IMG/VR virus record: IMGVR_UViG_2585427757_000006
Direction: 5' to 3' (one strand)
Length of the DNA: 64,000 bases
Origin: a virus
Taxonomy: Duplodnaviria; Heunggongvirae; Uroviricota; Caudoviricetes
Shown here: positions 54,829 through 60,933 of the stretch, one piece after another
Layout of the letters: every line of letters starts with the position of its first letter
Position numbering within the stretch: position 1 is the stretch's first letter
Notes under the pieces: model-generated
Database searches by the model: none
What the model was told of the DNA's origin: nothing
What the model saw: the letters and a program-made list of their open reading frames with translations, nothing else
Program-made: the position numbers and the translations under genes

Positions 54829-57800
54829 TTAGTTACGTTGAGTGTTTGGGTTGAGTGATCCGCCAGGGCGTTTCTCTTGAGCGATAGTCTCAAGCGCGAT
54901 TGCTTTCATCCGTTGAGCGGCATTGTTCCATATGCTTTCTGTATCGCCGGATTCTGTCGTGCTACCGTCACTATGGACGTTGATCTCAATTGATACAGGA
55001 GAAAGAACATTTCCGCCTCCACTCATACCATCGGTACTGAGCGTTACAGGGATTGTTCGACCATCAGGCAATGGAACATACGCCTCATTCATATCGCCTT
55101 CCCCAAACAACGCCAATTGAGGTGAGTTAGCAATACCGCCTTTCTGGTATGCCCGGAGCGGGATCACGCCGTCTTTTCCGAATATTCCTCCATTTGCAAA
55201 CTTCGGGATTGCAGGAATGCCTTTAGTTCCGTCAGCCACACTGCTGGTTGCGGTTTTAGCAGAGCTTGATGTCACGCTGTCGAAACCACCGCCAGCCCAA
55301 GCTGAAACAAGACCAGATGCAACCGTTGCTCCAAAACTCAACCACTTATTACCAGAGCCGGAAGCATTAGCTCCAAGCATTGCAAACGCGGCAGACAGCG
55401 CGCCGGTAACAGAGCTGAGGTTCTGCATCGAGAAGATGGAGTCCTTCACGGCTTTTGTCTCGGCATCTTTGGCTTCAGTGCTATCAAATAGCCCCGATAC
55501 CCAGCTACCAATCGCATTTGTTGCAGTGCCAATTGCGCTGGTGGTCTGCTGTGTTGTTTGCCCCAATCCAGTTACCGAACTGGACGTCTCCTTCGTGGCT
55601 TCTCCTACCGACTTGTCGCCGTTAACAGTGTTGCCCATTCGTACCCCTTGATTGGCAACGGCGGAAGCAACCCCGGTCAGCAAATTACCACTCTGTGAAC
55701 TACCAGCTGCGGTGGTTCCCATCCCCAACATGTTCATTAGAGGCAGCGTGATCTGCGACTTCACGACCATATTGGTGATATCTTTCAAAATGGACTGAGA
55801 TAGGCTGGAGAAGCTCATCTTCCCGTTAATAACGAAATCAGTCAGGACATCAGTTAAGCCACTAAACAAATCAGTCCAGGTGCTTTCGATCTGCTCTGCC
55901 AGGTTTTCGTATTCCAGTGCCAACTTCTGCGTCGCAGTCCCCGTCTCTTTAATAAGCGCGGTATTGCCAGCAGCAATCAGTTGATTGATTTTCTTTGTAT
56001 AAAGCGCCACAACTTTAGGATCAGACGCCTTATCACGAAGTTCTATCAACGCTTTGAGATTGCGGTTGTAGGTGTCTTCGAAATCAGCAACTTTCTCTTC
56101 ACGAGACGGCGTATAGCCAGCACTAATAATGGAATCCGCCTCCGGTGCCCAAGTGGAGATCATCTGCTCAACATTGCGGCGATTAAACATCTCGCGATAT
56201 TCAGGTGTCGCATTTTTGAGGTCTTCAAGACGTTTTTTCGCCTTGTCGATCATCTCTTGAGTGATGAACTCGTTAGGAACCGCATTAGCCAAATCCGTCA
56301 GCGATTTCGTTGTATCGCGTAGAGACTGATCAAACGATACCGTAGCCTTAGAGCTTTCACCCATTTGCCCCATAAGCTGATCGGCTTTATCCAGAGCCTT
56401 CTGGTATCCGGCTGCCAGTTTCTGTTGCGCTGCCTGTTCTTTCTTGGCCGCACGCTGCGAGGCATTAGCTGATCGTTGGGCTGCTTTCTCGGCGGCTGCG
56501 GCATCCTGTTCACGAGCTTTAGTCAGTGCGGCAATGGCTGCGGTACGCTCTTCATCGCTCATTTTCTCCAGAGAGCTGGCACTGGATGCTTTCTGCAAAT
56601 TAAGCTGCGTCTTGAGTTGTTTAGGCCCAATAATCGGCTTACCTTCGAAGTCCATCATCGGAGTGCCGTCAGGCAAAGTACGTTGATAAGTCGCAGAATC
56701 CATCTGGTTTCGCATGTATTGCGCCAGCGCCTTCTGAGCAGCTTTATCAGTTGTACCTAACCCAAGAACAGTCCCCTGGTTTGACATTACGCCCTTACCA
56801 GTTTTGGCCGCGTTATCTCTCTCGAACTCTGCCTGAGTAAGTTCCTGAGCAACGGCTTCCAAATGCTCCTGATAACCACGAATACTGCCTTGCAGTTTCT
56901 GGATTTGCTCGGTATTGCCATCCTTTTTGGCTTTTTCAAGCTGATCATTAAGAGTCGCAATTTGCTTCTCGGTCGCATTCTTACGAGAAGAAAGTGAATC
57001 AACCAGTTTTTGCGCAGGCTCCAGATAGCTTTTGTTTACCGTTTCACGTAACGGTGCCAATAGCTTGTTCTTTTCGTCATCTGAAAGTGAACCGTCATCA
57101 TTGATTTTCTGGATCTTATCCAGAGCCTCCTGCCGGGCTTTCACGAATGTTGCCGCGAAAATCTGGTTTTCCGCTCGAATTTTCTCAATCTGAGATTCGG
57201 CAGCCTCTTTAGCCAAACGCTTTGCTACAGCGCCGTCACCAAGAGCTATCGTGCCGGTTATCTTTTGATACTCTTCCTGATTTTTTTTCAGGCGTGCTTC
57301 GATGTCAGCCTTCGACTCTTTGTGAGTAATAACACCGGCAGAGTTAGATACGTAATTAACACCCTCACCAGTTTTTAATGCTCGTTGATCAGCAAGAATC
57401 TGCTTTTCGAGCTTTTCTGCGCGGTCGGCCATTTGTGCACGTTTGGCCGCTGTCATCGCTTCTGGTATTTTCCTAATCTCGTCAACGACCTTTGAAGTTT
57501 CGCTGCGGAGCATGGTCATGTACGTGATTAGGCCAGCAACAGCTACAGTGGCAACTGTAAATGCTGCCCCTATAGGGTTTGCTACAATGAACGCCGTTAA
57601 TCCAGCAAAAGCGCCTTTAAGCCCCGTAATCGCCCCACGGATGGCGAAAATAAGAGAGGGGATCGGAGCCAGCCCCATACGTGCCGCACGATTGAATCGA
57701 GTTACTGCTGTAGCGCCGAGGTTAAATGGAGTCTGTATGGCGGTCGCCATCGTGGCAAAGGTGCTAACCATCTGGCTCCCAGCGCCAACTACCCCCATGA

Positions 57801-59403
57801 TCCCTGCTCGCATCAGTTTGAACGCAACCATCGCGGCCACGACCTTACCGAGATTAATTACCAGCTCTTGGTTCTTTGCTAACCATTGAGCAAGCTGACG
57901 CAACCCATCGATTGCCGTTGTTAACCCCGAACCTAAAGAATTGGCAAACGAAATCCCTTCGGCGCTATTCATGATTGAAGCCAGTTCTTTCATCCCCTTC
58001 GATAGAGAATCCAGATATCCGGCCTGACCAACCCGATCAGCAAATAACGTGAATGACGTCTGAAGTTGCGCCAGCGCACCTGTGTAGGTTTGCATCATGT
58101 CTTTCGCTGCGTTCTCATTCTCCGCACGCAGACCAACAAACATCAGAGACAACGCCTGTTTTGCCTCAACCGTACCGCTGGCAACGGCTTTAGTCAGTTC
58201 CCCCATAGTGATGCCTGCGGCGTCTGCCATTGCCTGCATCGCGTTAGGAACGGCTTCACCTAATTGCTGACGTAGCTCTTCCATTGACACGACGCCCTTA
58301 CCGGACATCTGCTGAACGGCCACAGCCGCACGTTTCAACAGCTCACTATCACCACCAAAACGAGCAACGGAGTCCACCAGCGCCTTCAGAGAACCATCGG
58401 TTGGATCTAAGCCAGCAGAACGAAACTTCACGAAGGAGTCTGTTAACGCCTGCATCGCGAACGGCGCATTTTGAGCCATGTCTACGATGTACTTCATATC
58501 ATCAGCGGCAGCCTGGCCCGGGTTGGACTTCTCCTTATTCAACCCTCGAAGCATCACCCGCATACGTTCCATTTCGGCCGCAGCTTCAACAATAGGCTTC
58601 TGCCACCCAAACATGATGTCAGTAACCGTTCTGGCTGCATCTCCGATCTCGCCAAGCAGGAAAATGTTGCCACGAAGGCCAGAGAACATACCTTCTTCGT
58701 TACTTTTACCGCTATGGCCAGAAGCGCCGCTACGCCGCCCGCCACCACCATCGCCACTTCCAGATGTACGAACGCGTACCGGCTTGCTAATCAGTTGCTG
58801 ACGTCCGATAACTTCGTCCATCTGCTCACGAACCTTTTTCAGTCCCTCGGCAGCCTGACTCGTTGTGACACCCCAATTACTGAGTCGCTTCGTCGTGGTA
58901 TTAAGGCGCGTATTCATGCCACTCACGGACGCAGAGGCTTCTTTGACCTCCGTACCAAAGCGGCTTGCGCTTTTGCTTGCATAGGTCGCCCAATCAGAGA
59001 AATCATTTAGCTCTGATTGCACTTTACGTAATGACGCGGTGAGTTTATCTACTGAAGAAGTTGTCGTATCGACGCGCTCAATCAGGGCTTTAAGACCAGA
59101 ATTGAGGCTGGTGATGTTGCCACGCATTTTACGCGTAGCATCTGAAGCAAGCTCAAAACCGGCAGCTACATCCTGTAGTTTATCTGCCGTAGAATCGAGC
59201 TTGCTTTCCAGAACGCCAATGATACGGGCGACCGAACCCAAAGAGCGTTCAAAGGTTTGGATTTTTTGAGCAGGCTTTGTTACCTGCTCACCAAATCGAG
59301 TAAGCAGTTTCCCCGCACGATCGATTGACGCTGTAAACTGTTTGTCTTCCAGCGACAGGATAAACTCTACGTTTTGTGACATTCCCTTGTCATCCTCTGC
59401 CAA
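54829..59403 (-). CDS. tail tape measure protein (1524 aa)
   Basis: Size, position after G/T chaperone genes, long helical Ala/Gln/Lys-rich body, hydrophobic segments. Confidence 0.85.
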   Translation of the reverse strand: MAEDDKGMSQNVEFILSLEDKQFTASIDRAGKLLTRFGEQVTKPAQKIQTFERSLGSVARIIGVLESKLDSTADKLQDVAAGFELASDATRKMRGNITSLNSGLKALIERVDTTTSSVDKLTASLRKVQSELNDFSDWATYASKSASRFGTEVKEASASVSGMNTRLNTTTKRLSNWGVTTSQAAEGLKKVREQMDEVIGRQQLISKPVRVRTSGSGDGGGGRRSGASGHSGKSNEEGMFSGLRGNIFLLGEIGDAARTVTDIMFGWQKPIVEAAAEMERMRVMLRGLNKEKSNPGQAAADDMKYIVDMAQNAPFAMQALTDSFVKFRSAGLDPTDGSLKALVDSVARFGGDSELLKRAAVAVQQMSGKGVVSMEELRQQLGEAVPNAMQAMADAAGITMGELTKAVASGTVEAKQALSLMFVGLRAENENAAKDMMQTYTGALAQLQTSFTLFADRVGQAGYLDSLSKGMKELASIMNSAEGISFANSLGSGLTTAIDGLRQLAQWLAKNQELVINLGKVVAAMVAFKLMRAGIMGVVGAGSQMVSTFATMATAIQTPFNLGATAVTRFNRAARMGLAPIPSLIFAIRGAITGLKGAFAGLTAFIVANPIGAAFTVATVAVAGLITYMTMLRSETSKVVDEIRKIPEAMTAAKRAQMADRAEKLEKQILADQRALKTGEGVNYVSNSAGVITHKESKADIEARLKKNQEEYQKITGTIALGDGAVAKRLAKEAAESQIEKIRAENQIFAATFVKARQEALDKIQKINDDGSLSDDEKNKLLAPLRETVNKSYLEPAQKLVDSLSSRKNATEKQIATLNDQLEKAKKDGNTEQIQKLQGSIRGYQEHLEAVAQELTQAEFERDNAAKTGKGVMSNQGTVLGLGTTDKAAQKALAQYMRNQMDSATYQRTLPDGTPMMDFEGKPIIGPKQLKTQLNLQKASSASSLEKMSDEERTAAIAALTKAREQDAAAAEKAAQRSANASQRAAKKEQAAQQKLAAGYQKALDKADQLMGQMGESSKATVSFDQSLRDTTKSLTDLANAVPNEFITQEMIDKAKKRLEDLKNATPEYREMFNRRNVEQMISTWAPEADSIISAGYTPSREEKVADFEDTYNRNLKALIELRDKASDPKVVALYTKKINQLIAAGNTALIKETGTATQKLALEYENLAEQIESTWTDLFSGLTDVLTDFVINGKMSFSSLSQSILKDITNMVVKSQITLPLMNMLGMGTTAAGSSQSGNLLTGVASAVANQGVRMGNTVNGDKSVGEATKETSSSVTGLGQTTQQTTSAIGTATNAIGSWVSGLFDSTEAKDAETKAVKDSIFSMQNLSSVTGALSAAFAMLGANASGSGNKWLSFGATVASGLVSAWAGGGFDSVTSSSAKTATSSVADGTKGIPAIPKFANGGIFGKDGVIPLRAYQKGGIANSPQLALFGEGDMNEAYVPLPDGRTIPVTLSTDGMSGGGNVLSPVSIEINVHSDGSTTESGDTESIWNNAAQRMKAIALETIAQEKRPGGSLNPNTQRN

Positions 59404-59659
59404 ATATTTGCATCAGTTGCTCTTTGGCGTCAGGGTCTGCCTTATCCTGGCTTGGATCGTAGACTTTATCTGTTACGACTGGTCTTCCAATCCTGAGTTG
59501 CAAACCCTCCATGAACGCCTTCACAGCCTCGCCATCCGCCTGGGACGCACGAGCGACTTGTAAGTTGCGGACATCCTCTTCCGCACGCAGACGGTCTATA
59601 TTGCGACTGAGCATCCAGAACATCGTGAGAGGAACGTTCAGTAGCTCTAATGGCGACAC
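59390..59659 (-). CDS. tail assembly chaperone T-like segment (probably expressed as a G-T frameshift fusion)
   Basis: Frame stays open upstream across the G stop codon in the -1 frame (hand-checked). Confidence 0.5.
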   Translation of the reverse strand: MSPLELLNVPLTMFWMLSRNIDRLRAEEDVRNLQVARASQADGEAVKAFMEGLQLRIGRPVVTDKVYDPSQDKADPDAKEQLMQIFGRG

Positions 59660-59739
59660 GGCGTAGTGAGCAACTACACGACTGAAATAGAATCCGAGAT
59701 CTATTGAGACGGTCCTTGTCCCGGATTCATCGCGGGAAA

Positions 59740-60057
59740 TTACTTTGCCCCTTCGCCAGCCGCTTTTTCGTTTTCTTCATCAATCACTTCCATAGCGAAG
59801 GTGAAGATCTGCTGGAGTTGCGGAACGGTCAGTTTTTCAAGAACTTCATCAGGTACTGAAGGGATAACCTTACGAACCAGATCTGCATAAGCTGTCACTT
59901 GCTCAACAGGAGACATGTTCATGAGATCTTTGCCTTCCATCTGCTTGATGGAAACGAACAGACCTACCGTCATTTCAACGATGGGATATTCCTGACCGCC
60001 AAATTTGATGCTTTTCTTCGGAGGCAGAATGGAATCTAGATCGAGTAATTTGGTCAT
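59740..60057 (-). CDS. tail assembly chaperone G-like
   Basis: 105 aa, acidic C-terminus, between major tail protein and tape measure. Confidence 0.6.
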   Translation of the reverse strand: MTKLLDLDSILPPKKSIKFGGQEYPIVEMTVGLFVSIKQMEGKDLMNMSPVEQVTAYADLVRKVIPSVPDEVLEKLTVPQLQQIFTFAMEVIDEENEKAAGEGAK

Positions 60058-60112: not shown

Positions 60113-60859
60113 TTAATCTGCGGGGTTAATCGTTACTGACTTAGTTGCCTTCTTACCACCGCTATTGCTGGTGAAGGAGATATTTGTAGAACCCTGCGCC
60201 ACACCACGTACCAGACCCGTTTGATCTACCGTGGCCTTTTTCTGGTCTTCGGATTCCCAAACACCGGTTTTGTCTGCGGCATCAGCTGGAGTGATTTCGG
60301 CTGTCAGTTGCACAGTCTCCCCTGCTTTTACAGTTGGAGATTCCTGTTTGATCGACACGGTTTTTACCGGTTTAGGACCGCTCATTTTGCCCAGAACGCC
60401 TTCATCATCCGGGTATGCGCTGAACTGAACAGAGAACACACGAACATCATCAGACTGGTAGGTCATAGTGAAGTTGCCCGCGGTTGCCGCTTTCGGGATG
60501 GTCAACACATAGTCGGTGGTGTCCTGCGGAGTCAGAACCAGCTCCTTCGCCACATCAATCAGGTTAACGCCCTGTGCAGATGTGATCGTGACAGAGCTGT
60601 CATCTTCGCTCAGAGTAGAACCAGGCATCAGGTCAACCATGTTTTGGAGTACAGACTCAGCCAGAGGCGCGGTGATGGTAATGTTGCGCCCCTGAACTAA
60701 TTCGGAAATTACGGTCTGCCCCAACTGATCGACGGTGACTTTCAGCGTTTCAGTGGCTACTTCAACCTGAACACCACCTTTGGTGTAACCCAAATCCACA
60801 CCACCAAACGACACCTTACAGGCACCAAGTTTGATGTTTTTTACATGGGTATTAGACAT
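60113..60859 (-). CDS. major tail tube protein (V-like) with C-terminal Ig-like (Big_2) domain
   Basis: C-terminal Big_2-like sequence TVKAGETVQLTAEITPADAADKTGVWESEDQKKATVDQTGLV; likely start MSNTHVK at 60859. Confidence 0.75.
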   Translation of the reverse strand: MSNTHVKNIKLGACKVSFGGVDLGYTKGGVQVEVATETLKVTVDQLGQTVISELVQGRNITITAPLAESVLQNMVDLMPGSTLSEDDSSVTITSAQGVNLIDVAKELVLTPQDTTDYVLTIPKAATAGNFTMTYQSDDVRVFSVQFSAYPDDEGVLGKMSGPKPVKTVSIKQESPTVKAGETVQLTAEITPADAADKTGVWESEDQKKATVDQTGLVRGVAQGSTNISFTSNSGGKKATKSVTINPAD

Positions 60860-60933
60860 TGATGGAAAACTCCTTTTTCCGTTAATTCTACGCATTCATT
60901 GCGCCAACAGTAAGTATATACTTACCGATTAAC

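Follow-up and report, generated by a model that had tools for sequence, protein, structure and literature searches.

How is the second of two overlapping open reading frames (ORFs) translated when it lacks a start of its own? The question is raised by two small genes, G and T, on the minus strand of the IMG/VR virus record IMGVR_UViG_2585427757_000006 (Caudoviricetes), of which a stretch of 64,000 nucleotides (nt), called the window here, was analysed. T lies in the −1 frame relative to G, and we consider it likely, at a rough probability of 75%, that the pair encodes the tail assembly chaperones of an SSU5-like siphophage-plasmid in the manner of lambda G/GT, by a −1 slip at the tetramer A_AAG. 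The elements of the overlap (lengths in amino acids, aa) are given below.

60057..59740, minus strand: G, tail assembly chaperone ORF, 105 aa, 11.7 kDa; ATG 60057 with an AAGGA Shine-Dalgarno sequence, stop TAA 59742..59740
59393..59743, minus strand: T-frame extension, 117 codons after the shift (VISRDESGTRTVSIDLGFYF...); stop TGA 59392..59390; phrog_1131 match
59746..59743, minus strand: proposed −1 slip site A_AAG, made of the last base of Ala104 GCA and Lys105 AAG, directly 5' of TAA 59742..59740
59769..59763, minus strand: A5 run GAAAAAG, in the zero frame GAA AAA GCG, an A_AAA tetramer; judged not the functional shared slip site

In the proposed mechanism, most ribosomes would finish G at its TAA, and a small fraction would slip back by 1 nt with tRNA-Lys on the last sense codon AAG (59745..59743). 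The tRNA would re-pair with the overlapping AAA (59746..59744) and reading would resume at GTA (59743..59741) to give a GT fusion predicted to have 222 aa and 24.8 kDa, with the junction ...AAGEGAK-VISRDESG.... The presence of the stop codon in the A site while AAG occupies the P site probably slows A-site decoding, following the “shifty stop” idea, and a conserved hairpin 5 nt past the stop probably assists the shift. By analogy with lambda, the G part may bind the tape measure protein and the T part may recruit the major tail protein, and both G and GT would be absent from the virion.

The T frame as a probable extension of G

For the comparative analysis, about 250 related loci were assembled, in which the identity of G ranged from 100% down to ~30%. 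A first-pass annotation made from the letters of the window had described a T-like −1 frame open across the G stop and through T, and this was confirmed from 59776 to 59390. The last −1-frame stops (TGA TGA) occur just upstream of 59776, and the frame is then open for 128 codons up to TGA 59392..59390, spanning the annotated T ORF (GTG 59659, 89 aa). The frame opens 34 nt ahead of the stop of G in the window; in all relatives the open part covers at least 10 nt. The 3' end of G reads GAT GAA GAA AAC GAA AAA GCG GCT GGC GAA GGG GCA AAG TAA, and the same bases in the −1 frame read tGA TGA AGA AAA CGA AAA AGC GGC TGG CGA AGG GGC AAA GTA ATT. The random expectation for an open frame of 128 codons is ~(61/64)^128, roughly 0.002, and because the T frame is open and conserved in every relative examined, its openness is not due to chance. 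T was found in the −1 frame relative to G in all 246 of the 246 loci scored with a full G ORF; the truncated locus L253 was called +1 by the script and is −1 on inspection. A +1 shift was also considered as a route to T and rejected, as the +1 frame closes within 4–27 codons in all loci checked.

An alternative is that G and T are separate proteins made with no frameshift, T starting at GTG 59659, as in the record of Escherichia phage Cyrano, or at a downstream ATG, as in that of Salmonella phage SSU5. An 89-codon ORF with a GTG does exist, and all public records, including those of the RefSeq Prokaryotic Genome Annotation Pipeline (PGAP) for 232 E. coli plasmids, carry G and T as separate “hypothetical protein” entries. 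Against this, every locus has its −1 frame open as far back as the G stop, and the 28 codons from the G stop to the annotated GTG (VISRDESGTRTVSIDLGFYFSRVVAHYA) hold the best-conserved motif of T, SIDLGFYFSRVVAHY, with no start codon in the window and none conserved among the relatives. In comparisons with seven relatives, the ratio of nonsynonymous to synonymous polymorphism (pN/pS) of this segment was 0.21–0.49, and its variable columns were distributed as 12, 3 and 23 over codon positions 1, 2 and 3. Judged by these substitution patterns, the 28 codons are under purifying selection as protein. The GTG itself is an Ile codon in Photorhabdus- and Raoultella-type relatives, and the annotated T start differs from record to record, the ORF being 270 nt in Cyrano, 234 nt in SSU5 and 75–108 aa elsewhere. 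No Shine-Dalgarno complementarity was detected at the first three in-frame T starts, that is the GTG and the next two ATGs (59659, 59623 and 59614; free energy of the duplex, dG, at least 0), and the corresponding dG was −5.4 kcal/mol for the G start and −5.8 kcal/mol for the tape measure start. Since the early T starts lack a Shine-Dalgarno sequence, the conserved upstream codons are start-less and the GTG is replaced by Ile, independent initiation of T, and with it the two-protein explanation, is unlikely.

The first-pass annotation had itself named translation of T from its own GTG as one outcome that would speak against a shift, and the Ile codon of the relatives together with the missing ribosome-binding site contradict such translation. 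Its wider proposal, a G/GT-type chaperone pair with ribosomes entering T by a −1 shift at the 3' end of G, is supported by the gene order, the predicted fold of G, the 28 start-less codons, the lack of a Shine-Dalgarno sequence and the heptamers of distant members of the family.

Probable position of the slip and the RNA downstream

The −1 frame is restricted to the last 10 nt of G (A GGG GCA AAG) in 92 of the 240 related loci, and A_AAG is the sole Z_ZZN motif inside the 10 nt that are open in all relatives. The sequence NNA AAG TAA/TAG was invariant in 80 distinct G DNA sequences, representing 40 distinct proteins down to 37% identity. In these sequences codon 105 is always AAG and never AAA, and codon 104 is GCA or GTA only, the third base A being kept through the Ala/Val switch. 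Among the 13 other codons of G for a residue that is invariant and degenerate, by comparison, 11 vary at the third position, and the other Ala that never changes in G occurs with all four Ala codons. A_AAG was assigned as the slip site because it is invariant at synonymous sites and is the only Z_ZZN motif in the commonly open 10 nt, and on this conservation the −1 slip is almost certainly located at A_AAG adjoining the G stop and not at the A5 run. GC A_AAG fits Z_ZZN with cognate tRNA-Lys re-pairing, the −1 codon being AAA, and the G_GCA_AAG context offers no P-site re-pairing in the −1 frame. Of the −1 tetramers, A_AAG is the most efficient in E. coli, with up to 5.6% shifting when combined with the IS3 pseudoknot and near-background shifting without a stimulator (PMC4066793). 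The lambda G:GT ratio is ~30:1 (PMC5009743), and thus shifting of a few percent at A_AAG would fit the need of a G/GT system.

The first-pass annotation had pointed to the A5 run instead, placing GAAAAAG at about 59762-59768 and ~24 nt before the G stop. The run exists and lies upstream of the stop; its actual position, 59769..59763, is one base off and its last base is 20 nt from the stop. It was correctly described as departing from the canonical X_XXY_YYZ, since it reads as an A_AAA tetramer. The scan for slip sites that had been suggested as a check found no canonical heptamer in the window overlap, only the tetramers A_AAA and A_AAG, the second of which had been overlooked, and revealed a conserved candidate hairpin downstream. 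A −1 shift at the A5 run, ~8 codons before the G stop, would reach T in the window, where the −1 frame is open from 59776, and would also yield 222 aa, with the junction ...NEKSGWRRGKVISR; the slip at the A5 run would be marked by the peptide NEKSGWRRGKVISRDE and that at A_AAG by GAKVISRDE. A_AAA is measurably active with a stimulator, though the weakest of the six tetramers that shift in E. coli (PMC4066793). Its AAA codon in the run is 8 codons upstream of the G stop (window 59740-59769), near the spacing of 8-10 codons at which ribosomes colliding with one that had paused at a stop raised −1 shifting at slippery sites in reporter assays, but that effect was shown with slowly decoded UGA and not with UAA (PMC6815119). 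As the A5 site is not conserved, the spacing is probably coincidental. In 92 of 240 loci, some of them with a G that is 96–98% identical, a synonymous GGC->GGT change (C TGG CGA -> C TGG TGA) puts a stop into the −1 frame downstream of the run, and the run is replaced by GAA GCC/GCA in relatives at 64–71% G identity, which argues against it as the slip site and makes a shift there very unlikely. This −1-frame TGA between the A5 run and the G stop, present in many relatives, had escaped the first-pass annotation.

The joining of T to G by transcriptional slippage, with RNA polymerase stuttering on an A run, was also considered, as A-runs occur near the junction. Productive transcriptional slippage needs homopolymer runs of about 7–9 or more. 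Only three A's stand in the conserved element (GCAAAG), conservation does not extend to the A5 run, and a Lys AAG preceded by A and followed by a stop is the signature of tRNA re-pairing. Although such slippage is used by some bacterial and phage genes (PMC5009743), it is a highly improbable explanation of this junction.

For the proposed slip of tRNA-Lys at A_AAG, a candidate stimulatory hairpin was obtained downstream of the G stop, with the following parts.

59734..59677, minus strand: candidate stimulatory RNA hairpin, RNAalifold consensus
59734..59729 with 59682..59677, minus strand: hairpin helix 1, 86.7% paired
59728..59721 (GAAUCCGG) with 59697..59690 (UCGGAUUC), minus strand: hairpin helix 2
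59720..59719 with 59699..59698, minus strand: hairpin helix 3

Pairing over the whole hairpin was kept in 92–97% of cells with a few compensatory changes, in an alignment of phylogenetically related sequences. For helix 2, pairing reached 100% of cells with 21 distinct sequences and 97.5% with 30; seven of its eight pairs vary, one with a U-A/G-C exchange. One pair of helix 3 was A-U in 11, G-C in 10 and G-U in 9 cases and never A-C. When the 3' partners were slid by 1–3 columns as a control, pairing fell to 27–54%. Helix 1, the weaker and outer one, begins 5 nt past the stop and 8 nt after AAG, which is the canonical spacing, 5–9 nt from the motif being the range for stimulators of IS3/IS1222-type signals. 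Similar stems, with the 3' arm on the D-L/F-G-F codons, were found in the distant loci L102, L103, L248 and L249. From this pattern of covariation a role of the hairpin as stimulator of the −1 shift is plausible. Two other candidate elements were examined and set aside: a short CCCG/CGGG hairpin directly after the stop, in place of which RNAalifold favours the longer GAAUCCGG/UCGGAUUC stem, and an upstream Shine-Dalgarno-like stimulator, for which the GGTGA that many relatives have 6 nt upstream gives way to CCTGA or GATGA in other relatives.

Several observations weigh against a programmed slip at A_AAG assisted by this hairpin. The Ala codon GCA does not re-pair in the −1 frame, where it would be set against GGC, which limits slippage to a single tRNA, and bare tetramers showed hardly any shifting in reporter assays (PMC4066793). 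The window hairpin is no more stable than shuffled controls: its minimum free energy has a z-score of −1.17, and 23 of 200 shuffles fold as well. The strongest helix, helix 2, lies 14 nt after AAG, and the canonical spacer is provided by the weaker helix 1 only. The conservation of the hairpin could largely stem from the protein, since its 3' arm carries the codons for D-L/F-G-F. In the window a slip at the A5/A_AAA site would likewise lead into the open T frame, and a minor contribution from this site is possible. The support for the frameshift is wholly comparative or predictive.

Tail genes, distant homologues and carrier element

The assignment of G as a tail assembly chaperone was examined by homology and modelling. 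A profile search of 1.84 billion representative proteins returned 399 G homologues, nearly all of 100–130 aa, and all 140 of the 140 homologues scanned belong to phrog_893. PF10109 (Phage_TAC_7) gave a weak match (E ~1e-4) in only 3 of these 140 remote homologues. Pfam scans of G and T themselves gave no match, and thus no membership of a curated Phage_TAC_* family, and the G alignment, used as a profile against the sequences of PDB chains, returned noise only (E at least 0.15). The AlphaFold model of G obtained with the deeper alignment has a predicted local distance difference test score (pLDDT) of 84.2 and consists of a beta-hairpin followed by four helices; as modelled, G adopts the tail-assembly-chaperone fold. 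PHROGs 893 (G) and 1131 (T) are both listed as “unknown function”.

The order on the minus strand, 5' to 3', is major tail protein, G, T and the 1,524-aa tape measure gene. The same order is common to Cyrano, SSU5, the Klebsiella, Raoultella and Photorhabdus relatives and the distant loci.

60895..60113, minus strand: major tail protein, 260 aa, with a C-terminal Big_2 immunoglobulin (Ig)-like domain; Pfam Big_2 E 1e-24, phrog_1280 and several major-tail-protein PHROGs
54829..59382, minus strand: tape measure protein gene; likely start ATG 59382 with a Shine-Dalgarno sequence, 8 nt past the T stop

Homologues of the tape measure protein match Pfam TMP_3 and Tape_meas_lam_C. Its longest ORF opens at TTG 59403, overlapping T, and ATG 59382 agrees with the Cyrano annotation. 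For the major tail protein, a Shine-Dalgarno sequence is lacking at ATG 60895 (dG −1.5), and in the Cyrano record the gene begins 12 codons downstream (MSNTHVK). The longest-ORF starts of these two genes are probably not the true ones.

The window is an SSU5-like phage-plasmid; the region of G and T is 99.4–99.7% identical to Escherichia phages Cyrano and CMS-2020a and ~89% identical to SSU5. Of 5,426 complete E. coli genomes scanned, 232 carry the G-T segment (80–100% identity) on plasmids, and no chromosomal copy was found in any of the 5,426. A scan of species-representative genomes also located the segment in Yersinia pestis, Kluyvera and Photorhabdus, and assemblies of Klebsiella, Salmonella and Raoultella carry it as well. 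Two metagenome-assembled genomes, L085 and L089, labelled Bacillota / Candidatus Fimivivens, have contigs 74–98% identical in G; such taxon labels on enterobacterial phage-plasmid contigs are most likely a binning artefact.

In G/T lineages at ~30–40% identity, canonical heptamers occupy the equivalent spot, often adjoining the stop.

G_GGA_AAG TAA at the end of G: L248
A_AAA_AAG TAG or TAA at the end of G: L249, L253
A_AAA_AAC TGA at the end of G: L251
G_GGA_AAA at the end of G: L101, L250, L252
G_GGA_AAC GAG TAA at the end of G: L103

These lineages, few in number, came from a metagenome scan; the scan of viral contigs with the T alignment returned mainly the SSU5-like loci again, and the single distant G proteins P0040, P0042 and P0045 used as queries against viral contigs gave no matches. 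From this comparison, the site of the SSU5 clade seems to derive from such a heptamer by decay of its first half.

A second site was noticed in the major tail gene. In the Raoultella-type relatives (L094:2135-2450, L092:2135-2450) a major tail ORF of 163 aa ends GCC CCA AAG TAA, the stop following immediately on C_CCA_AAG, a highly efficient heptamer, and the −1 frame runs on for 254 nt and encodes the Big_2 Ig-like domain. By its sequence this looks like a second programmed −1 shift, which would place the Ig domain on only a fraction of the tail-tube subunits, and the design of XXA_AAG followed by a stop is common to the end of G and the end of this Raoultella-type gene. The major tail gene of the window has its Ig domain in frame with the rest (around 60379; GGT CCT AAA CCG GTA AAA), and every tail-tube subunit would therefore carry the domain. 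In a 38%-identity relative (L099:2270-2410) the major tail ORF ends TCA AAA AAA AAG TAA (A_AAA_AAG plus stop), and its −1 extension has only 26 aa, is Pro/Lys-rich and carries no Ig domain. A tentative extension of these observations, which we think doubtful though possible, is that SSU5-like phage-plasmids, together with their relatives, possess a reusable −1 cassette of a distinct kind, with XXA_AAG set against a stop and the 3' arm of a hairpin inside the first conserved motif of the extension. It would serve at two neighbouring tail genes, at G/GT and, in some lineages, at the major tail gene with its Ig-domain extension. In the SSU5 clade only a bare tetramer would be left of the heptamer, a pause at termination together with the hairpin being enough. 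Phage annotation would in that case be systematically missing a class of programmed −1 sites, the tetramers that adjoin a stop.

A tail-chaperone frameshift is expected in long-tailed phages, and the value of the G/T pair is mainly practical. The element is carried on plasmids of ~4% of complete E. coli genomes, and its group includes SSU5 and a Yersinia pestis contig; current records omit 28 conserved codons of T, and PHROGs 893 and 1131 gain a function assignment. For gene finding, a scan for heptamers only would miss the window site or choose the wrong A-run, and the relatives with a closed −1 frame pinpoint the tetramer-plus-stop site. The locus is also a compact natural model in which to study the stimulation of single-tRNA −1 slippage by a stop codon and a hairpin.

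Comparison with known systems

A conserved tail-assembly-chaperone frameshift of long-tailed double-stranded DNA phages was reportedly described by Xu, Hendrix and Duda in 2004. An incomplete literature search found no paper tying SSU5-type elements to this frameshift, which is weak evidence of absence, and no database record describing it for them was found either. The window pair is an unannotated instance of that textbook frameshift, with a less common slip-site design. Like lambda gpG/gpGT, it has two overlapping ORFs between the major tail and tape measure genes, the second in −1 and without its own start; the shift would fall on a Lys AAG near the 3' end of G, and a low-efficiency site is expected here as well. 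The lambda heptamer G_GGA_AAG is itself present in distant members of this protein family. The window G and T differ from lambda in having no detectable similarity to lambda G or T and in a shorter G (105 aa), and their motif is the single-tRNA tetramer GC A_AAG adjoining the stop, for which the conserved downstream hairpin may be needed. HK97 gp13, Bacillus subtilis YqbN and Geobacillus stearothermophilus Rbstp2171 (2OB9, 3KLU, 3FGX) are solved tail assembly chaperones and are among the closest known systems. Neither the canonical heptamer nor the curated-family match of G/GT-type chaperones is present in the window pair.

The slip motif itself has its counterpart in the IS3/IS1222 transposase genes, which use A_AAG with tRNA-Lys moving from AAG to AAA. 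IS1222 shifts productively at G_CGA_AAG (PMC5009743), to be compared with G_GCA_AAG in the window, and the IS3-type A_AAG shift depends on a 3' stimulator (PMC4066793). In IS3 this is a pseudoknot 5 nt downstream, whereas the window has a candidate bipartite hairpin and an abutting zero-frame stop. The shift controls a transposase there and would set a ratio of structural proteins here. The “shifty stop” sites of prfB and antizyme, an idea said to go back to Weiss et al. in 1987, share with the window a stop in the A site beside a slippery P-site codon, but the classic programmed cases are +1 and the window shift would be −1. In its synteny, frame relation, lack of an own start for T, conserved shift motif and predicted fold, the window pair fits the conserved tail-chaperone frameshift.

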